Shown: positions 4,445 to 19,100 of the stretch, piece after piece
How the letters are laid out: every line of letters begins with the position of its first letter
Position numbering within the stretch: the first letter of the stretch is position 1
Origin: a virus
Taxonomy: Duplodnaviria; Heunggongvirae; Uroviricota; Caudoviricetes
Virus record (IMG/VR): IMGVR_UViG_2703718843_000010
Reading direction: 5' to 3' (one strand)
DNA: 22,143 nucleotides
Notes under the pieces: generated by a model
What the model was told of the DNA's origin: nothing
The model's input: the letters and a program-made list of their open reading frames with translations, nothing else
The model's database searches: none
Made by a program: the position numbers and the translations under genes

Positions 4445-5355
4445 CCGCCTACTACAACGAAATCGACCCCTTCGCCGCGCAATACCTGCGCAACCTCATT
4501 GATGCCGGGCTTATCGCTTCCGGTGTTGTCGATACTCGTTCCGTTGAGGATGTAACCCCAAATGACCTTAAAGGATTCTCACAAGTCCACCTGTTTGCAG
4601 GTTTTGGAGGCTGGCCCCGTGCTTTGCGCGTCGCAGGATGGCCGGACGACCGCCCAGTATGGACAGCAAGTTGCCCATGCCAACCTTTCAGCCAGGCAGG
4701 CGAAGGAAAACAATTTGATGATGAGCGGCACCTATGGCCCGCCGTTCATTGGCTTGCAGGCCAGCAACGCCCTGTCGTTATATTTGGCGAACAGTCTTCA
4801 AGCAAAGATGCAGAAGTCTGGATCGACCTTGTACAAACTGACATGGAAAGTTTGGGCTATGCCTTCGGGGCGTCGGCGTTTCCGTCTGCGGGCGTCGGTG
4901 CGCCGCACATCCGGGAGCGTACTTACTGGCTGGCCGACTCCAACCGCGAGCAATACGAAGAACGCTTATCAGGATGCCGAGAAGGTGATCGCCAGGAAGC
5001 TGGCTGGTCGGCAGTCGAACTTACAGGGCTTTGCTTGTCTTGCGGGTTGGCCCACCCCTGCGGCGAGGGATGGAAAGGGCGGGTATCAGGGAGGAAGGAT
5101 GCGGCACGGGAAGCTGTCAACGGATACGCTGGATGTGACAGCGCAGATAGCAGGCCCGGCCCGGTTAACGGATTCTGGGGATCTGCTGACTGGCTCCTTT
5201 GCAGAGATGGAAAGTGGAGGCCAGTTAAACCCGGCCTTAAGCCTCTGGTTGATGGGGTTCCCTCCAGAGTGGGAAAACTACGCGCCAGCGGAAACGCCGT
5301 AAATATCTATGCAGCCGCAACTTTCTTAAAAGCCTACATGGAGATCGCGCAATGA
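4441..5355 (+). CDS. DNA cytosine-5 methyltransferase (phage-type); a second long overlapping frame is described in findings
   Basis: GTG start overlapping the upstream stop (GTGA). Motif I FAGFGG, motif IV PCQPFSQAG, GEQ-type motif VI region, motif VIII GAPHIRERTYWLA, motif X GNAVN...FLKAY. Stop overlaps the gene A ATG. Confidence 0.8.
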   Translation: MTAYYNEIDPFAAQYLRNLIDAGLIASGVVDTRSVEDVTPNDLKGFSQVHLFAGFGGWPRALRVAGWPDDRPVWTASCPCQPFSQAGEGKQFDDERHLWPAVHWLAGQQRPVVIFGEQSSSKDAEVWIDLVQTDMESLGYAFGASAFPSAGVGAPHIRERTYWLADSNREQYEERLSGCREGDRQEAGWSAVELTGLCLSCGLAHPCGEGWKGRVSGRKDAAREAVNGYAGCDSADSRPGPVNGFWGSADWLLCRDGKWRPVKPGLKPLVDGVPSRVGKLRASGNAVNIYAAATFLKAYMEIAQ

Positions 5356-7757
5356 CCACGGCAACCCGTGGCCGTCGCGCCCCTTCTCCACCTCCACCGT
5401 ATCCGGGTAGCACTGACAATGCTATCCCTTACGCTTATGGCGGGAACAAACCATACCAGCCTATTGGCGTTGATGTAGCGCCGGGGCTGGATGGTTTCGA
5501 CTATCTCACGCCGGACGGCACGCGTAAGCATATTGCGTTCAGTGAACTGGTAGCGGAAGACGAAAAGCCGGAGCGCAGCAAGCTGCTGCGTCGCCGCCTG
5601 GCTTCTCTTCCGCAGTATATCCGCCGCCACTTTGCCGCGAAGCTGGATGCACTGGACGCGAAAGACCGCAAAGCGGCAGATCACTGGCTGGTTAATACAT
5701 TTGAGCGCCACGTATTAACGCGTATTGATAGCGTGAACAGTGTTTACCAGCCTGACACTGTGATGCCCGGCATTCTGCTGCCAATCCGCGATCAGCTTTT
5801 CCGTATGCTCTGGGCAGGGAAGAAAGAGTTAAAAAGACTGGCTTATACGCTTGCCGATATCTTTACGAGCGAGTTTATACGCGAGTCCGATCACCAGTTG
5901 GCACGCACCGGAGATCCTGAGTTCGCGGCGCTTTCTGGCTATGGCCGTATTGCGTCGCTGGCGGTGCATCTGAAAACGCCGATCCCTGGCTGGACGGCGT
6001 ATTGCAATGAAGAACTGGAAGCGGAGGACGCGTTACGCGCGGTTCTTCGCCTTGAGTCACCGCAGTGGTGGTTAAACCGCCTGCGCCGTATCCATGCCCG
6101 GTGGCGTGAGCATTTGATGATCGCAGCGGGATACGTCCAGAAAAAATCTTCCCCATACAGTAGCGCCCCGTGCCTTACGGAGTGGTTGGCCCAGAAAAAG
6201 GCTAACCGTGAATACCTTAAGGCTATGGAACTGGAAGACCAGGACACGGGCGAACGCATTTCACTGATCGATAAAGTCGCCGGTAGTGTTGCCAATCCGG
6301 CCAACCGTCGCCGCGAACTCATGACGAGAATGCGCGGATTTGAAGATCTGGCGAAGCTGGAAGGGCTGGCCGGTGACTTCTACACGCTAACAGCACCTTC
6401 CCGTTACCACTCCATGCAGCATAACGGGCGCCGCAATAATAAATACTGTGGCGCGTCGCCGCGCGAGACGCAGCAATATCTTTGCAAAGTCTGGGCGAGA
6501 ACCCGCGCAGCGTGGAAGAGAAAAGGGATCCGCGTCTTTGGTTTCCGCGTGGTCGAACCGCACCACGATGCAACGCCACACTGGCATTTACTTCTTTTTA
6601 TGCGCCCGGAATGCGTCGAGCAGGCGCGCGAAATCTTCCGTAAATATGCCCTGAAAGAAGACGGCAACGAACCGGGAGCGCAGGAAAACCGCTTTCAGGT
6701 TGTGCCGATCGACGATGCCCACGGCAGCGCAACCGGCTACATAGCGAAATACATTTCGAAGAATATCGACGGCTTCGCGCTGGATGGTGAGAAGGACGAC
6801 GAAACCGGGGAAGACCTGAAAGAAATGTCACTCCGCGTTAGCGCGTGGGCATCGCGCTGGGCTATTCGTCAGTTTCAGCAGATCGGCGGTGCGCCGGTCA
6901 CGGTATATCGCGAACTTCGCCGCCTGGGCGATCGCGAACTGGTGTTACACCCTGAACTGGAAACCGCCCGGCAGGCCGCTAACGGTGGCGAATGGGATAA
7001 CTACGTATTAGCCCAGGGTGGACCGTTGGTTGAGCGCGATAAGCTGCGCATCCGTCTGAATTATGAAACCACTGAAAACGGCAACGCCTACGGCGATAAC
7101 GTCCAGCGAATCACTGGTATTTACTGCCCGATTACGGGCAATGACTCTTTGATCTTCACCCGCACCACTCAATACAAAATCGTGCCGAAGCGCCAGAGCG
7201 CTGACGGTGTGGCCGTTGACGTTGGTTTTTCAGGCGGCAACGCCGCCCCTCGGAGTTCTGTCAATAACTGTACGCGGGATCCCGCGGCAGGTGCTGACGG
7301 TGTAGAACATGCCGCCAGCGAAGCTACAGGGCAGTCAGAAATGACTGAGCCAGCTGAGGGCGTGACGGTGAATTTTGATGCGCTTTCACGGCAGGAAAAG
7401 CGAGAATTGGCGCAGCGGCTCAGTGCCGATGTGCGAAGTAAGCGTAAAAAACGGCCACCGGATAGGGAAGACAGGGCCGGGCTGTCCGTGAAAGAGCAGC
7501 AGATCAGTGAACTGCTGGCGCTGCGTGGGATTGATGCCAGCGCCGGAATGGTCAGATCGATGATGGCCGGTGCGTCAGTGGCGTGCGGCGATCTTGTTAT
7601 GACCGTGCAGGACGGGCGGCTGGTGTCGCGCAATCGCGCCGCGTCGGGGATAGGTAAATTAGCAACTGAAAAAATGGCAGTTAAGAAAAAATCTGATGAA
7701 CTTCTCAATCGCTGGAAAGTGGCTGTAAAAATTAACAGGGGTAAGTTGACAAATTGA
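5352..7757 (+). CDS. A: Replication initiation protein A (rolling-circle HUH endonuclease), P2 gpA-like
   Basis: 801 aa with HUH-type motif EPHHDATPHWHLLLF and active-site tyrosine motif GYIAKYISKNIDG; collinear with remembered P2 A. Confidence 0.95.
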   Translation: MTTATRGRRAPSPPPPYPGSTDNAIPYAYGGNKPYQPIGVDVAPGLDGFDYLTPDGTRKHIAFSELVAEDEKPERSKLLRRRLASLPQYIRRHFAAKLDALDAKDRKAADHWLVNTFERHVLTRIDSVNSVYQPDTVMPGILLPIRDQLFRMLWAGKKELKRLAYTLADIFTSEFIRESDHQLARTGDPEFAALSGYGRIASLAVHLKTPIPGWTAYCNEELEAEDALRAVLRLESPQWWLNRLRRIHARWREHLMIAAGYVQKKSSPYSSAPCLTEWLAQKKANREYLKAMELEDQDTGERISLIDKVAGSVANPANRRRELMTRMRGFEDLAKLEGLAGDFYTLTAPSRYHSMQHNGRRNNKYCGASPRETQQYLCKVWARTRAAWKRKGIRVFGFRVVEPHHDATPHWHLLLFMRPECVEQAREIFRKYALKEDGNEPGAQENRFQVVPIDDAHGSATGYIAKYISKNIDGFALDGEKDDETGEDLKEMSLRVSAWASRWAIRQFQQIGGAPVTVYRELRRLGDRELVLHPELETARQAANGGEWDNYVLAQGGPLVERDKLRIRLNYETTENGNAYGDNVQRITGIYCPITGNDSLIFTRTTQYKIVPKRQSADGVAVDVGFSGGNAAPRSSVNNCTRDPAAGADGVEHAASEATGQSEMTEPAEGVTVNFDALSRQEKRELAQRLSADVRSKRKKRPPDREDRAGLSVKEQQISELLALRGIDASAGMVRSMMAGASVACGDLVMTVQDGRLVSRNRAASGIGKLATEKMAVKKKSDELLNRWKVAVKINRGKLTN
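7233..7287. other. Candidate replication origin (nick-site region) inside gene A
   Basis: Hairpin GGCGG-CAACG-CCGCC, then CCTCGGAGTTCTGTCAATAACTG, then perfect palindrome CGCGGGATCCCGCG. Encodes the AAPRSSVNNC linker that I remember as the ori-containing part of P2 A. Confidence 0.35.
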
Positions 7758-7820: not shown

Positions 7821-8414
7821 ATGTCTAAGCAGCCTTTACCTTGGGACTTTCACCCACAATTAACTGAAGAGCGTTTAACAATTATTGCTAAAGAATTGTT
7901 AAGGGTCTTAAATGACACATATGCTCAACTTTCGACCACCTTGGATAACAACTATACACGTTCTACTTGTACTTTTGGTCGTCAATGGCAGTTACTTATT
8001 GATTTATGTTTGAGTGGACAGTACGACTGGCTTCATCTCACCAACGCTGGTTTAGACATCACTTTTACGATCGATACAATTCCTGTTCGTTTCTTCACTG
8101 ATGATCCGGCCAATCCTAAAAAGGATGGTTTTTATCGTCGAAATCCTGCTGATCAGCTTTTTGCTCCTGAGGTGGACATTCCCGTTTTACATCGCTTTGT
8201 TGTTGAGAAACCCGAATTTGAGGGTGAAGGCGCTAAAGTTCATTTCATTGGTTATAACGCTTTGGACGAAGAAGTATCTAAGTGGACGTACAACGATGAA
8301 CCAACAACAGCATTGTTGCACTCTACGGATGATACACCGCCAGAGTCTGTTAGAATTGAACTTGATGACATTCGCCCTTCTCGTCCCGAAAAGGAAGAAA
8401 AAGAGAGCGATTGA
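7821..8414 (+). CDS. Hypothetical protein (197 aa), first gene of the hotspot cassette; candidate effector or toxin
   Basis: ATG at 7821 with GGAG upstream. No motif I recognise; acidic, low-complexity C-terminal tail (PSRPEKEEKESD). AT-richer than the flanking phage genes. Confidence 0.6.
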   Translation: MSKQPLPWDFHPQLTEERLTIIAKELLRVLNDTYAQLSTTLDNNYTRSTCTFGRQWQLLIDLCLSGQYDWLHLTNAGLDITFTIDTIPVRFFTDDPANPKKDGFYRRNPADQLFAPEVDIPVLHRFVVEKPEFEGEGAKVHFIGYNALDEEVSKWTYNDEPTTALLHSTDDTPPESVRIELDDIRPSRPEKEEKESD

Positions 8415-8437
8415 GATTAATGAGTAGAAGGTGAAAA

Positions 8438-9550
8438 GTGTTTAACGGTTCTAATTTAAGATTGGCTCGTCTGTATCACGAGCTATCACTGGAGCAAGTA
8501 GCTGAGCGGGTCGATAAGACCCGCCAGTATATTCAGCGGCTGGAATCCGGCACGGCTGTTCCAACACCCGAGCTTGCGAATAAATTAGCTGCCGTCTTGC
8601 TGGTGATGCCTCATTTTTTTGAAGAGCAATGGCAGTCTCCTGTAAATGAAGAGATCGTTCACTTCCGCAAGCGTAGTTCTACGAGAGTCGCCACAAAAAT
8701 GGCGACTCTCGCCAAAGCTGAGCTGTATCGACGACTTATTGAAATTTTTGAAGAGTATCTGGAGTTACCGCAAGTAAGATTTCCTGAACTGAAGGTGGAT
8801 ACTCAAGAGGATATCGAAAAAGCAGCGGAGAAGTGCCGGACTGATTGGGGGCTAGGTTTTGGGCCGATCGATAACATGACTCGTCTTGCTGAAAAGCTGG
8901 GAGCGTTTGTCACTTCTTTTGATTCTGTTTCTGACGATGTTGATGCTCTTTCTGTTCCTTTGAGCCGCCCATTTATCGTAAGGAATACAGCTAAAAAGTC
9001 ACCCTGCCGTCAGCGGTTTGATATCGCTCACGAGGTTGCACATTTAATTTTACATGAGGGTGTCTCTACTGGAGACAGGGCTACTGAGTCGCAGGCTAAC
9101 CGCTTCGCGTCTGCATTGCTTTTGCCAAGAACAGCTATGGCGAAATATTTTCCACGTCCGATTGGTGGTCGAATCGACTGGCAAGGTCTTAGCCAGTTTA
9201 AATTAACGTGGAAAGTGAGTAAGGCCGCGATCATTTATAGAGCACATCAACTTGGGCTTTTAACTGACGCTCAATACAAAACCGCCTTTTTTGGTCTCAA
9301 GCGAAAGGGGGAGGCTATTGATGAGAAAGAAGATTATTTGATCCCTTGTGAGAAGCCAGAACTATTCAGTAAAGCAATGAAATGCCTGTTAAATGATTTG
9401 TCCGTGGATATTGAAACATTAGCCCAGCGTTTGAGCATAACCCCTACGATGCTCGCAGAACTTGCTAATGATGACACTTTGGTTTCTGCGTCATGTGTGA
9501 ACTCTGAGAATGTAATTTCAATGTTTGCGTATCGGATGAAAACTGCTTAA
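8438..9550 (+). CDS. XRE-family HTH fused to ImmA/IrrE-type (M78, COG2856) zinc metallopeptidase, with an extra C-terminal region
   Basis: GTG start with AAGGTG at 5-nt spacing. N-terminal HTH LRLARLYHELSLEQVAERVDKTRQYIQRLESG; HExxH motif HEVAH encoded at 9029-9043 within the ImmA-like core; about 150 further residues after the core. Confidence 0.85.
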   Translation: MFNGSNLRLARLYHELSLEQVAERVDKTRQYIQRLESGTAVPTPELANKLAAVLLVMPHFFEEQWQSPVNEEIVHFRKRSSTRVATKMATLAKAELYRRLIEIFEEYLELPQVRFPELKVDTQEDIEKAAEKCRTDWGLGFGPIDNMTRLAEKLGAFVTSFDSVSDDVDALSVPLSRPFIVRNTAKKSPCRQRFDIAHEVAHLILHEGVSTGDRATESQANRFASALLLPRTAMAKYFPRPIGGRIDWQGLSQFKLTWKVSKAAIIYRAHQLGLLTDAQYKTAFFGLKRKGEAIDEKEDYLIPCEKPELFSKAMKCLLNDLSVDIETLAQRLSITPTMLAELANDDTLVSASCVNSENVISMFAYRMKTA

Positions 9551-15709: not shown

Positions 15710-15807
15710 CGACTTCGGCCCCGTCCGACAGGCGGCGCGGGTGGATATCTGCCCGTTTACGGTCTTTTAACCACCCGCCCACCGCCTGATTTATGGGAGA
15801 TAAGTGC

Positions 15808-16332
15808 ATGAGCAGCCTTGTGGCTAATAAGCGCGTGTTGCCTGCCGGCAGCGATACCCCCGATGTTGATGATGGTGATACCACCGTCAGTGCCGGGGAC
15901 TTCTGGCCGGTGATTAAACTGGCCGATCTTCGTCTGGCCGCGCGCATCACTGGCGGCATCACCACGTCCAGGCTGATGCACGTCACCACGGAAGCGGTAG
16001 CCCATGTCACTGCGCAGTTGCTGGACTGGCGTGCCGGTCAGGTCAAGGCAGGTTTTCAGACGCTGGAAGATGTGCCTTCAACCCTGCCATCAGGTGAGAT
16101 GGAAAAGCTGGTTATCAACGGTGAAAACGTGAAGGTGTACCGCTTCCGCCGCGCAGTCTATTCGATTGCCAGGGCGCTGGTACTTGAAGGCTATCGCGAC
16201 GTTGATACCACGGCGAAAGGCGATAAAGACGCCGCCGCGCTTGACCTGCAACGGGATGATCTCTGGCGGGATGCCCGCTGGAGTATCGCTGACATTCGCG
16301 ACACCCCGCGCCTCTATGCGGAGCTTTGCTGA
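15808..16332 (+). CDS. L: Capsid completion protein, P2 gpL-like
   Basis: GFQTLEDVP...KVYRFRRAVYSIARALVLEGYRDVDTTAKGDKDAAALD...DDLWRDARWSIADIR matches remembered P2 L. ATG at 15808 with GGGAGA upstream. Confidence 0.9.
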   Translation: MSSLVANKRVLPAGSDTPDVDDGDTTVSAGDFWPVIKLADLRLAARITGGITTSRLMHVTTEAVAHVTAQLLDWRAGQVKAGFQTLEDVPSTLPSGEMEKLVINGENVKVYRFRRAVYSIARALVLEGYRDVDTTAKGDKDAAALDLQRDDLWRDARWSIADIRDTPRLYAELC

Positions 16333-16532
16333 TGAAAGTGAAGGCATTGCAGGGGGATACGGTGGATTTGCTTTGCTGGCGTCACTACGGCACCACGCAG
16401 GGCGTGACCGAAAAAGTGTTATCTGCCAATCCCGGACTGAGCCAGCAGGTTTTTCTTGATGCCGGTCAGGAGATTGAACTGCCGGAAATCGCGCACAAAG
16501 CGACACAGGAGATGGTGCAGCTATGGGATTAA
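16332..16532 (+). CDS. X: Tail protein X, P2 gpX-like
   Basis: MKVKALQGDTVDLLCWRHYGTTQGVTEKVLSANPGL resembles P2 X (ALQGDTLDAICVRYYGRTEGVVETVLAANPGL). ATG overlaps the L stop. Confidence 0.85.
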   Translation: MKVKALQGDTVDLLCWRHYGTTQGVTEKVLSANPGLSQQVFLDAGQEIELPEIAHKATQEMVQLWD

Positions 16533-16825
16533 GTTTCTTTCAGCGCCTGAATGACTGGCTGACATTCACGATGTCAGCGATGGTCACGAGTATCGGCGTT
16601 ATGACACTGAGCGAAAAGATTGCGCTGGCCGGTCTTTTTGTCGGGATGGTTTTTGGTGCCCGTGGATGGCTCTATCGCGCTCGCATCGAACGAGGGCAGA
16701 AGCGTCGAAACGAACTGATTAACCAGATTCTCGAGCAGGCAGAACACAGGCAGATGAGTGAGTCAGAGCGCCGGGCGCTTGACCTTCTGCAACAGAATGA
16801 GCCGGAAGATGAAACAGCTTATTAA
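16523..16825 (+). CDS. Putative holin (two transmembrane segments, charged C-terminus)
   Basis: 100 aa with hydrophobic segments FTMSAMVTSIGVMTL and IALAGLFVGMVFGA followed by a highly charged tail; positioned directly upstream of the endolysin. Confidence 0.6.
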   Translation: MGLSFFQRLNDWLTFTMSAMVTSIGVMTLSEKIALAGLFVGMVFGARGWLYRARIERGQKRRNELINQILEQAEHRQMSESERRALDLLQQNEPEDETAY

Positions 16826-17354
16826 AAAATGCTCCATTGCGGCCATTGTTGCGCTGGGTATCACGCTCAGTCCTGGCGCGTTGCGCACCACGCCTGAAGG
16901 CCAACAAAAGATTGCTGGCTGGGAAGACTGCCGGAATACGCCCTACTACTGCACGGCTGGTGTGCTCACGGTCGGAATTGGTTCGACGGGGCGCGTTGAG
17001 AAGCGGGAGTACAGTGACAGCGAGATCGCCGGTCGATGGATTAACGATATGCGGCACGCTGAAAACTGTATTAACCAGAATTTTGAAGGCGGGCATATGC
17101 CACAGTCCGCCTTTGAGGCCATGACGGATGCCAGTCTTAATGTGGGGTGTACTGGCCTGATGTGGTTCACGGACGGCCAGAAGCGAAAGCAGCGCACGAC
17201 CATCTGGAAGAAGGCGCAGGCGCATGAATGGCAGGCGATGTGTAACCGGCTGACGGACTTTGTGAACAGCGGCGGTAAACGTAGCCAGGGACTGGTTAAC
17301 CGTAGAACTGATTTTAAGGCGTGGTGCCTGCGTGACGTGGAGGCTGGAAAGTGA
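16809..17354 (+). CDS. Endolysin, lysozyme-like, with N-terminal signal-anchor-release-like segment
   Basis: 181 aa; N-terminus MKQLIKKCSIAAIVALGITLSPGAL is weakly hydrophobic, and the remainder has a phage-lysozyme-like fold signature (called by eye). Sits between the holin and the spanins. Confidence 0.8.
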   Translation: MKQLIKKCSIAAIVALGITLSPGALRTTPEGQQKIAGWEDCRNTPYYCTAGVLTVGIGSTGRVEKREYSDSEIAGRWINDMRHAENCINQNFEGGHMPQSAFEAMTDASLNVGCTGLMWFTDGQKRKQRTTIWKKAQAHEWQAMCNRLTDFVNSGGKRSQGLVNRRTDFKAWCLRDVEAGK

Positions 17355-17788
17355 AGATTACAGCCATTTTATGCGCGCTGCTGGCGCTGGCCTCTGGTGG
17401 CTTGCTCTGGCAGACACATCAGCGCGGTAAAGACTCCGTCCGCAATGAAGTGCTTTCCCGCGAGGTGAAGAGTAATGGTGAGGTGGTTGGAGAGTTGCGG
17501 GCAATGACTGCTGACGCCCGCGAAGTCCTTGCACAGTTGCGGGCAACCGAACAGCAAAGAAACGCCCAGGGAGAAAAGCGACGTGAAAACATGCGCGATG
17601 CCATCAAAGACAATACGTGTGCCAACACTGTTGTGCCTGCTTCTGTCAGTAACAGCCTGCAACACCGTACCGCCGCAGCCGCAAATGAAAATCGTGCACG
17701 AGCCGGTGCCGGAAAGCCTGACGGCAGCAACGCCAGCGCCGGAACTGACCGCCCCGGTAACATGGGGGGCGATAGCCATCTGGAGTGA
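17351..17788 (+). CDS. lysB: i-spanin (Rz-like), P2 LysB analogue
   Basis: GTG start overlapping the endolysin stop; N-terminal transmembrane segment ITAILCALLALASGGLLW followed by a charged, coiled-coil-like region. Confidence 0.7.
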   Translation: MKITAILCALLALASGGLLWQTHQRGKDSVRNEVLSREVKSNGEVVGELRAMTADAREVLAQLRATEQQRNAQGEKRRENMRDAIKDNTCANTVVPASVSNSLQHRTAAAANENRARAGAGKPDGSNASAGTDRPGNMGGDSHLE

Positions 17789-17897
17789 TCGCCTGCGCGA
17801 TGCGCTGGATACCTGCAATGCCGATAAGGCGGCGATAGCCGATCTCGATCTGCGCCGCCTGAAAAGACTGACTGACCACGCGAGGGCAAAACCATGA
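17598..17897 (+). CDS. lysC: o-spanin lipoprotein (Rz1-like), P2 LysC analogue, overlapping the i-spanin in the +1 frame
   Basis: MPSKTIRVPTLLCLLLSVTAC has a lipobox (VTAC) and a proline-rich mature N-terminus. It starts inside the i-spanin gene and extends beyond its end. Confidence 0.65.
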   Translation: MPSKTIRVPTLLCLLLSVTACNTVPPQPQMKIVHEPVPESLTAATPAPELTAPVTWGAIAIWSDRLRDALDTCNADKAAIADLDLRRLKRLTDHARAKP

Positions 17898-17986
17898 CTT
17901 TATTCGACTACCTGAGCGCTCACCCTTACTGGACGCTTATTTATCTGCTGATCATTGCGGGCGCGATTGAACGTTTCGGGCGTTAA
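17894..17986 (+). CDS. Small hydrophobic peptide (30 aa, MTLFDYLSAHPYWTLIYLLIIAGAIERFGR); not on the ORF track
   Basis: ATG overlaps the o-spanin stop (ATGA) and is preceded by GAGGG at 7-nt spacing; a single predicted transmembrane helix fills the gap before R. Confidence 0.35.
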   Translation: MTLFDYLSAHPYWTLIYLLIIAGAIERFGR

Positions 17987-17998
17987 GAAGGTATCACC

Positions 17999-18469
17999 AT
18001 GCTGAAAGCTGACTCACTACGCGAGACCCTGACCCGCGCTAACAAATGGTGCAGGGCCAATCCTGAAGCCTTCACCGTATTTGTGGAAGAAGGGAATATC
18101 GAGACGACCGGCGAAACACCATCGTTTATGTACCGCTATACCCTGGTGCTGTTTGTGATGAATTTTGCCGGTGATATTGATGATTTCACGTTGCCGTTAA
18201 TGGCATGGCTCTGGCACAACCAGCCCGATCTGCTGCTGAACCCGGAGAAGAACAGGAACATTAAATTTACGACCCTTATCAACAACGACGATACCGCCGA
18301 CATTCTGTTTGAAATGCCGCTGCGCGAGCGTGTGAGGGTCACTCTGGATGAAAACGGTATTCCCCGGGCGGAGCATTTGCCGGAACCTAAACCACGTATC
18401 CCGTCAGCGGACGGAGACTGGAGCGCCATCTTTGAGGATGTGACGTGGGAGGGTGACGCGCATGAGTAA
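17999..18469 (+). CDS. R: Tail completion protein, P2 gpR-like
   Basis: MLKADSLRETLTRANKW...MYRYTLVLFVMNFAGDIDDFTLPLMAWLWHNQPDLL resembles P2 R; RBS AAGAAGG. Confidence 0.85.
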   Translation: MLKADSLRETLTRANKWCRANPEAFTVFVEEGNIETTGETPSFMYRYTLVLFVMNFAGDIDDFTLPLMAWLWHNQPDLLLNPEKNRNIKFTTLINNDDTADILFEMPLRERVRVTLDENGIPRAEHLPEPKPRIPSADGDWSAIFEDVTWEGDAHE

Positions 18470-19100
18470 CGATCTCTTCCGTGAGCTGGATCAGGTATTC
18501 AGCGACATACTCGCGGGCACCTCGCAGGCCGGACGTGTTCGCACTGCCCGCGCTATTGGCCAGGCACTGCGAAAGAGCCAGCAACAGCGCATCAAAGCAC
18601 AGCAAAACCCTGAAGGCTCGCCATATCCTGCCCGCCGTCGCCGGGTGTTGCGCTCTCAACAAGGTATTGTTTTTGTCTGGCAGGGGGAGATCCGCCGCCT
18701 GAAAAACTGGCACGGTGGCCGGGGAAAATACGGGCGAACCATTACCGGCTTTGACGAAGAGCGCAACGATATTCGCACGTTTTACCGCAGCGATATTGAG
18801 CGTTACATCGAGATCAATACGCGCTCAGTGCGCCGCAGCACTGCGAAGAAAGTGCCGATGTTTCAGCGGTTGCGCAGTTATCGCTTTCTCAAAATGCGCG
18901 CTGATGCTGGCGGTACTTCCGTTGGTTATGACGGCGTGGCGGCACGCATTGCGCGTGTGCACCAGTACGGCCAGCGCGATCAGGTTGGGCCGGGTGCCTT
19001 TGCTAAATATCCGGTGCGTGAGCTACTGGGCTTTACCGCTGGCGATGAGCAGATGATTACGGAACAGGTGATTAATAGCCTGGGGAGAGCCGCACGATGA
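18462..19100 (+). CDS. S: Tail completion / virion morphogenesis protein, P2 gpS-like
   Basis: ATG overlaps the R stop (ATGAGTAA) with GGGAGGG upstream; called from position between R and V and general similarity to virion-morphogenesis family proteins. Confidence 0.75.
   Translation: MSNDLFRELDQVFSDILAGTSQAGRVRTARAIGQALRKSQQQRIKAQQNPEGSPYPARRRRVLRSQQGIVFVWQGEIRRLKNWHGGRGKYGRTITGFDEERNDIRTFYRSDIERYIEINTRSVRRSTAKKVPMFQRLRSYRFLKMRADAGGTSVGYDGVAARIARVHQYGQRDQVGPGAFAKYPVRELLGFTAGDEQMITEQVINSLGRAAR

Follow-up and report, generated by a model that had tools for sequence, protein, structure and literature searches.

Genes and features of the lysC–R junction

The stretch of viral DNA analyzed here (22,143 nucleotides; IMG/VR record IMGVR_UViG_2703718843_000010, referred to below as the window) comprises the left 22 kb of a P2-like prophage of the Peduoviridae, and between its o-spanin gene lysC and its tail completion gene R lies a small open reading frame (ORF) of 30 codons at 17894-17986. 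Judged by the substitution patterns among its alleles, this ORF is a genuine protein-coding gene under purifying selection, and its conserved motif places the product in an unnamed family of phage micro-proteins. The features of the junction and of the preceding lysis genes are as follows.

15793-16332, + strand: gene L
16326-16532, + strand: gene X
16523-16825, + strand: two-helix holin (phrog_1350)
16809-17354, + strand: lysozyme (PF00959) with an N-terminal, weakly hydrophobic segment like that of signal-anchor-release (SAR) lysozymes
17351-17788, + strand: i-spanin LysB (DUF2570 / phrog_214)
17598-17897, + strand: o-spanin lysC (PF23793 LysC, 3e-10; phrog_3001; lipobox VTAC), whose product starts MPSKTIRVPTLLCLLLSVTAC
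17882-17886, + strand: Shine-Dalgarno element GAGGG of the small ORF, read from the sequence, within the lysC coding sequence
17894-17986, + strand: small ORF, 30 codons and TAA, product MTLFDYLSAHPYWTLIYLLIIAGAIERFGR
17900-17935, + strand: N-terminal motif LFDY-x3-HP-x-WT, codons 3-14 of the small ORF (alignments A2 and A3 and the family alignment)
17924-17980, + strand: predicted membrane helix PYWTLIYLLIIAGAIERFG, codons 11-29 of the small ORF (AlphaFold2 and charge analysis)
17987-17998, + strand: 12-nucleotide spacer with the R Shine-Dalgarno element GAAGG, read from the sequence
17999-18469, + strand: tail completion gene R, in the same late operon (PF06891 P2_Phage_GpR, 5e-40)

The start codon of the small ORF (ATG, 17894-17896) overlaps the lysC stop (TGA, 17895-17897) as ATGA, the GAGGG element is positioned at 7-nucleotide spacing and is invariant across 27 aligned sequences, and the stop (TAA, 17984-17986) leaves 12 nucleotides before the R ATG at 17999. 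All three signals are as described in an earlier reading made from the letters of the window (the sequence-only reading), which had also called the frame unannotated. That description holds for relatives of the window, where the ORF is passed over by gene callers, among them the NCBI Prokaryotic Genome Annotation Pipeline (PGAP), which leaves it out of E. coli prophages, but not for Enterobacter phage phiT5282H (Peduoviridae, genus Novemvirus), in which the identical 30-residue peptide is annotated as YP_009879872.1 (HYP56_gp32; UniRef A0A386K4W1_9CAUD). The phiT5282H gene occupies the same position between spanin and tail genes in DNA that is 96% identical and differs in no respect from that of the window; its record says only "hypothetical protein" and gives neither family nor function nor literature. 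Across NCBI and UniRef the identical peptide carries the labels "hypothetical" or "uncharacterised" and is found on at least 1000 contigs, and a literature search on phiT5282H, small phage genes and the motif strings found nothing on it. The sequence itself is therefore already known as a deposited hypothetical protein; what is new here is the evidence for purifying selection, the definition by motif of a family that extends far beyond P2-like phages, and a family context that does not support a lysis-specific role.

The region 17300-18500 is 96% identical to phiT5282H and 95-96% identical to 4 of 5426 complete E. coli genomes, and in the window S and V follow R. The lysozyme exhibits the pattern E-8aa-C-5aa-T, and its SAR character is predicted from the N-terminal sequence; the cassette resembles the pinholin/SAR-endolysin type and not that of P2. 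A complete spanin pair precedes the small ORF, with LysB assigned to phrog_214 and LysC to PF23793 with the lipobox VTAC, and the small peptide matched neither i-spanin nor o-spanin families in Pfam and PHROG scans. For lysC the most likely start is ATG 17598, from which the lipobox is included. In relatives the start chosen by PGAP and other callers corresponds to 17694 or a position close by, for a product of 63-70 residues, and a start at the 17694 equivalent is disfavored because the lipoprotein signal needed by an o-spanin would be lost.

The sequence-only reading had further stated that P2 has no gene at this position. This is literally true, since P2 lysC (8202-8492) overlaps P2 R (8455-), though the comparison is loose because the cassettes, as judged by sequence searches, are non-orthologous. 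None of P2 Y, K, LysA, LysB and LysC showed detectable similarity anywhere in the window lysis cassette, and R is the only homologous gene in the comparison, with 39% identity to P2 R. A lysA homologue is absent from the window; the search with P2 LysA gave E = 0.24, at an unrelated place. Within P2 lysC, shortly before R, the P2 record also annotates a putative transcription attenuator of the O operon (P2 8399-8417; 1900-1918 of locus L113), and no terminator-like motif was found at the corresponding lysC/R junction of the window.

Conservation and purifying selection

An IMG/VR scan with LysB (28 loci), combined with reference loci, gave 27 distinct lysB-R sequences from close relatives. The 30-codon frame is intact, with ATG and stop, in 26 of the 27, the exception being a locus with a 17-nucleotide deletion (L005). 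More distant relatives were found through LysB homologues at 63-86% identity. Prophages of Erwinia, Pantoea and Enterobacter retain the small ORF, as do Citrobacter and Edwardsiella prophages although their LysB is only 63% identical; in the Citrobacter clade and in other Edwardsiella and IMG/VR loci (L045 and L084) the start is GTG, with a GTGA overlap, and the product is VTLFDFIAEHPFWTLIYLLIIASVIERFAR. Conservation of the frame in related prophages, which the sequence-only reading had named as a check, is thus upheld both in close and in distant relatives, and the substitutions point the same way.

Among the 26 distinct nucleotide alleles of P2-like prophages, 34 synonymous and 20 non-synonymous state changes were counted on 21.3 and 65.7 sites, respectively, for an omega-like ratio of 0.19 (binomial test on the pooled alleles, p = 2.5e-9). 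Reading these substitutions in the two remaining frames yields 2.06 and 0.98. Codons 13-22 (WTLIYLLIIA) show 10 synonymous changes and 0 replacements. Pairwise Nei-Gojobori ratios of non-synonymous to synonymous substitution (dN/dS) for the ORF are 0.18 against Citrobacter and 0.04 against L019; for the same two pairs R gives 0.15 and 0.12 and LysB 0.23 and 0.18. The ORF ratios lie in the range of those of R and LysB, which indicates that the ORF evolves like its protein-coding neighbors, and a frame this short can evidently be constrained as strongly as the neighboring essential tail gene.

A chance open frame, or a non-coding element such as an RNA structure, attenuator or promoter, would be compatible with the very short length of the ORF and its omission by PGAP and other callers, with the attenuator annotated in P2 just upstream of R, and with the identity of the core TGGACGCTTATTTATCTGCTGATCATTGC between the window and the Citrobacter clade. 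Among the alleles, however, every codon of that core is found in synonymous variants, third-position and synonymous changes are in excess in this frame alone, and protein-level homologues at 40-60% identity are found in contigs of very different G+C content (GC), so that this explanation is hardly credible. Particular RNA structure, terminator and promoter explanations were considered and rejected: Rfam gave no match anywhere in the window, no promoter-like or terminator-like motif was found inside the ORF, and shuffled controls form more stable folds than the RNA of 17880-18005 does (z = +1.28). A superinfection-exclusion membrane protein made by the repressed prophage would need a promoter of its own. 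No sigma-70-like promoter was found in 16400-18600 by a consensus scan, which weak or other promoters could escape; the gene lies inside the late operon.

Presence, absence and decay among P2-like phages

In P2-like phages the gene always sits exactly at the lysC–R junction, as a compact cassette of ~91-96 nucleotides with its own Shine-Dalgarno element, joined to each neighbor by a start/stop overlap or a very short spacer. The junction is occupied in three clades: Novemvirus-like phages (including the window), the Citrobacter/Edwardsiella group and Reipivirus-like phages, the last represented by L053, whose peptide MTLIEFAAAHPFWTLIYLMVITSALSGLGRH is 53% identical to that of the window and whose small ORF stop overlaps the R start (TAATG). 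A clean 91-nucleotide indel separates L053 from its close relative Klebsiella phage ST16-OXA48phi5.4, the junction reading CCATGA...CACTAATG in one and CCATAAATG in the other. Phages 3LV2017 and P88 and prophages of Serratia and Symbiopectobacterium carry related cassettes in which lysC abuts or overlaps R, with no small ORF.

In three E. coli prophages this cassette is replaced by one with a lambda-family holin, a lysozyme and a DUF2514 protein, and these prophages rejoin the window at 94-95% identity from 17984, the small ORF stop (e.g. L003, CFSAN051542, 2501-). This breakpoint falls just before the R ribosome-binding site, and the resumption of homology there places the small gene on the lysis-module side of the recombination boundary.

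Broken copies are also found. The 17-nucleotide deletion, at the equivalent of ~17918-17934, is present in both L005 and L043 (Kosakonia oryziphila), cuts the peptide to 19 residues and is flanked by a short repeat, TAC(C/T)TG / TACTGG; its recurrence in two loci suggests one slipped-strand event inherited within a Kosakonia prophage lineage. Yersinia retains a 67-nucleotide remnant without an ORF. One Edwardsiella genome has a +1 T frameshift, which could be a sequencing error, as it lies in a homopolymer run. Three independent single-base deletions within codons 22-28 (P0001, P0002 and L108 3001-3111) keep residues 1-21 or more and shift into the +1 frame, giving 36-residue products that end ...SGVKK(V/A)SPC and terminate in an overlap with the start of R (ATGCTGA). 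Since the new tail is basic as well, function may be retained in these variants. Together the decayed copies indicate that the gene is dispensable and that its N-terminal two-thirds are the constrained part. By its distribution across genomes, present in three P2-like clades, absent from sister phages and repeatedly broken, the gene can be classed as accessory.

A family of phage micro-proteins with an HPWWT motif

A phmmer search with the 30-residue peptide against 1.84 billion proteins (one representative per 50%-identity cluster of ~15 billion) recovered 7 further cluster representatives of 31-41 residues, aligned from residue 1, with E of 1e-4 to 6e-4; E-values are fragile for hydrophobic queries of 30-40 residues, though the conserved positions here are polar or aromatic rather than generically hydrophobic. 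A profile search returned 32 proteins with E of 1e-9 to 1e-16 (5.8e9 proteins, with a profile built from the members themselves), and scans of IMG/VR and JGI metagenome contigs added members from contigs of GC 0.54-0.69. The family hidden Markov model (HMM) matches the window ORF at 66 bits, and no second member was found in the window.

The 18 distinct members collected share the motif (M/V)-T-L-F-D-Y-(I/V)-x-(A/E)-H-P-W-W-T-L-(I/V/L)-Y-L, in which H10, P11, W13 and T14, all present in the window peptide, are invariant both in these members and in alignment A2. The proteins are composed of 30-45 residues, with one half of the helix enriched in Ala, Gly, Ser and Cys and a variable tail rich in Lys and Arg. 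Most overlap an upstream stop as ATGA or GTGA and have a GGAG/GAGG element 5-9 nucleotides upstream, and several end on the start of the next gene. On the strength of the shared motif and profile matches, the window peptide can be assigned to this unnamed phage micro-protein family.

Searches aimed at known proteins gave little. In 50,697 phage records searched by tblastn with the peptide, phiT5282H was the sole real match; hits in polynucleotide kinase genes of T1-like phages (tblastn E 1-5) were set aside as chance. The family consensus again found phiT5282H, together with a single borderline match in phage D6. Scans of the peptide and its 7 homologues against Pfam, PHROG, NCBIfam and PADLOC gave only weak matches, to tiny PHROGs of unknown function, and a sequence search of the PDB with the family profile gave only chance matches (E ~1). 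A protein search with a doubled peptide recovered only two of the 36-residue frameshift variants.

The spread of the motif also bears on the suggestion that the open frame serves merely as a translational bridge, carrying ribosomes from lysC to the R ribosome-binding site with no relevance of the peptide. Such a role would fit the ATGA overlap at the 5' end, a stop within or adjoining the R Shine-Dalgarno element, the TAATG overlap in L053, the termination of the C-terminal frameshift alleles on the R start, and the direct contact or overlap of lysC with R where the ORF is missing. A pure spacer, though, is not expected to keep the same motif in unrelated phages beside unrelated genes, nor to hold its amino-acid sequence under purifying selection (omega ~0.19, with only synonymous changes in codons 13-22), and we regard it as very improbable. 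The selection data lead us to exclude both a pure translational bridge and a chance ORF.

Predicted structure and topology

The AlphaFold2 model built from the family alignment (mean predicted local distance difference test score 88.9) has a helix at residues 3-9, a break at H10-P11, and a second helix at residues 11-29. A hydrophobic core, P11-I25, is flanked N-terminally by acidic and C-terminally by basic residues. The model, the core and its charged flanks agree with the single membrane helix predicted in the sequence-only reading. Net charge of the N flank is -1 or -2 in 17 of the 18 members and 0 in the remaining one, while the C flank is net +1 to +5 in 16; the other two are net 0 yet contain 2-3 Lys/Arg, and all 18 have 1-6 Lys/Arg in this flank. 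In the window peptide the basic tail after the helix is ERFGR.

By the positive-inside rule, an acidic N flank and a basic C flank point to an N-out/C-in orientation. From a simple hydrophobicity sum, charge counts and the AlphaFold2 model, the product is predicted to be a single-pass inner-membrane peptide with the HPWWT collar at the periplasmic interface and ERFGR in the cytoplasm.

Family neighborhoods outside P2-like phages

The non-P2 members lie on uncultured contigs in which most genes cannot be annotated; the high-GC contigs (0.54-0.69) had no close cultured relatives by terminase and RecT similarity. Neighbors could be assigned as follows.

L058: terminase large subunit and Mu-type portal, with the family member between them
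L080: PDDEXK exonuclease and RecT
L091: AAA_24 recombination ATPase and integrase
L059: ThyX, a MazG-like protein and a family-2 glycosyltransferase
L054: RusA-like and HNH-like proteins (assigned only by reading the translations) and other small membrane proteins
L111: a primase/helicase-like DUF5906 protein

A constant neighbor gene across the non-P2 members was looked for and none was found, and among the called genes within 5 kb in L054 and L055 there was no precomputed Pfam lysozyme or holin match. None of these positions is a recognizable lysis cassette, and the consistent location of the family in lysis cassettes holds in P2-like phages only.

In the high-GC contig L054 the family member sits within a run of very small predicted membrane proteins (4592-5004 and 5676-6151), downstream of the RusA-like and HNH-like genes. 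The run comprises a 68-residue two-helix protein (phrog_1374), a 69-residue C-terminally anchored protein, and proteins of 74 and 84 residues with hydrophobic segments, and it could be an unrecognized membrane-acting or lysis gene cluster.

Comparison with known systems

Releasin of phage Mu is substantially larger than 30 residues and is a membrane-tethered protein with a functional cytoplasmic domain. The protein, gp25, is reportedly encoded just after the spanin genes in a phage that has a SAR endolysin, as Chamblee et al. are said to have described in mBio in 2022. The gene order of the window (holin, a lysozyme predicted to be of SAR type, LysB, LysC, small ORF) resembles that arrangement. 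The window peptide nevertheless shows no sequence similarity to releasin and no DUF2730 match in Pfam, would place only ~5 residues (ERFGR) in the cytoplasm, and belongs to a family that is not confined to lysis cassettes.

Antiholins and other timing proteins such as P2 LysA, lambda S107 and T4 RI are inner-membrane proteins encoded in lysis cassettes that are non-essential and modulate timing, P2 LysA being annotated "nonessential; affects timing of lysis". P2 LysA has several predicted membrane helices. It comprises ~141 residues against the 30 residues and single helix of the window peptide, with no homology between the two, and the relatives of the window peptide, unlike the antiholins, lie outside lysis cassettes.

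The bacterial micro-proteins AcrZ, MgtS, MgrB and CydX have 30-50 residues and one membrane helix, bind a larger membrane protein, and are often missed by gene callers. These are chromosomal host genes with known partners, whereas the window family is phage-borne and has the distinct HPWWT motif; an NCBIfam scan gave no sequence similarity of the window peptide to bacterial micro-proteins.

Candidate functions

The sequence-only reading had suggested that a small membrane peptide at the end of the lysis cassette might act as a lysis regulator or antiholin-like factor. In its fuller form this would be a dedicated lysis-timing factor, placed in the inner membrane next to the two-helix holin, the membrane-tethered SAR lysozyme and LysB, that delays or triggers holin action or SAR-domain release, in the manner of an antiholin or releasin, and fills the role of P2 LysA. 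In its favor, the small gene closes the lysis cassette and shows coupling to lysC, cassette swaps carry it along with the lysis module (breakpoint 17984), the same SAR-lysozyme cassette is found wherever the gene occurs in P2-like phages, no lysA homologue is present in the window, and the Mu releasin gene reportedly lies just after the spanin genes; the shared cassette, the co-movement and the releasin position keep real weight on this idea. Set against these are the lack of similarity to holin, antiholin and releasin (DUF2730) models in Pfam, PHROG and NCBIfam (E <= 1 to 10), the location of non-P2 members in terminase/portal, recombination, integrase and nucleotide-metabolism regions, and the absence of the gene from phages with the same cassette (ST16-OXA48phi5.4, 3LV2017 and the Serratia and Symbiopectobacterium prophages). 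The copies of Kosakonia, Yersinia and one Edwardsiella are broken, and the cytoplasmic part predicted for the peptide, ~5 residues, is unlike that of releasin, a much longer, membrane-tethered cytoplasmic protein. The evidence neither supports nor refutes a lysis-regulator role, the case for which is one of position; in the dedicated form set out here we consider it possible but doubtful.

We give about even credence to a different explanation, namely that the gene encodes a portable accessory membrane micro-protein with a general partner in the host inner membrane, for which the lysC–R junction is a parking site. The gene would be translated late in infection from an O-type late operon, together with the lysis and tail-completion proteins, by ribosomes that finish lysC and reinitiate at the overlapping ATG, or that are recruited at GAGGG. 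The peptide would insert in the inner membrane N-out/C-in, with the aromatic His-Pro-Trp-Trp-Thr collar at the periplasmic interface, and is predicted to bind its membrane partner through the collar and the first (outer) half of the helix, like other single-pass micro-proteins. That partner would be a general component of the host inner membrane rather than a protein of this lysis cassette, with the lysC–R junction providing a tolerated and well-expressed site for a portable accessory gene. A host inner-membrane target is favored over a dedicated cassette role because the family is portable across functional modules.

Several points weigh against this explanation. All P2-like occurrences carry the same cassette (phrog_1350-type holin, SAR lysozyme, DUF2570 LysB and LysC) and the gene travels with the lysis module, so that a lysis-linked role fits these data at least as well as a parking site. 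Lysis genes on the non-P2 contigs could have escaped recognition, and a link to lysis may therefore exist there too. The hydrophobic core is short, at ~15 residues, and its summed simple apparent insertion energy is ~0 to +1.3 kcal/mol, which makes stable membrane insertion plausible rather than certain; both the partner-binding mechanism and the topology are, moreover, what we infer from comparative evidence.

A reading that joins the two is also conceivable, though unlikely: HPWWT micro-proteins would be widespread inner-membrane effectors of one conserved host target, and the P2-like copy would have been recruited to tune depolarization or SAR-domain release. The peptide would then be a 30-residue minimal functional counterpart of an antiholin or releasin, with the collar Phe-Asp-Tyr...His-Pro-Trp-Trp-Thr on the periplasmic side.

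As it stands the work is a solid annotation correction and the definition of a family rather than a mechanistic discovery. Genes of ~30 codons are routinely dropped by annotation pipelines, and PGAP omits this one despite its presence on at least 1000 public contigs. Should the peptide act in lysis timing, no smaller factor of this kind would be known; should it target a host membrane protein, it would join the few phage micro-proteins whose targets are defined. The sharp, mutable motif His-Pro-x-Trp-Thr, found in very different phages, makes it a tractable candidate for a new membrane-acting accessory function. Natural presence/absence pairs exist, and the substitution G17896A would remove the ATG of the small ORF while keeping the lysC stop as TAA, as ST16-OXA48phi5.4 has it naturally, and leaving R intact.

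The borderline match to the family consensus is an ORF of 37 residues, MMDFWTYIDKNPGWSLLFLLVIVYGVEQVAKNLRRRK, in the P1-like Escherichia phage D6 (L112 1498-1611; NC_050154.1 6172-6282, minus strand), which is unannotated in RefSeq. It follows tciB with an ATGA overlap, resembles the family in its pattern YID-x2-P-x-W-S-L-L-F-L-L-V-I with an RRRK tail, and reaches 23.7 bits with the family HMM, but it lacks the invariant His and the second Trp, and with a tblastn E of 0.5 the match is borderline and homology is not established. The D6 ORF adjoins the TerB-like TciA and TciB genes (tellurite/colicin resistance or cell division inhibition).

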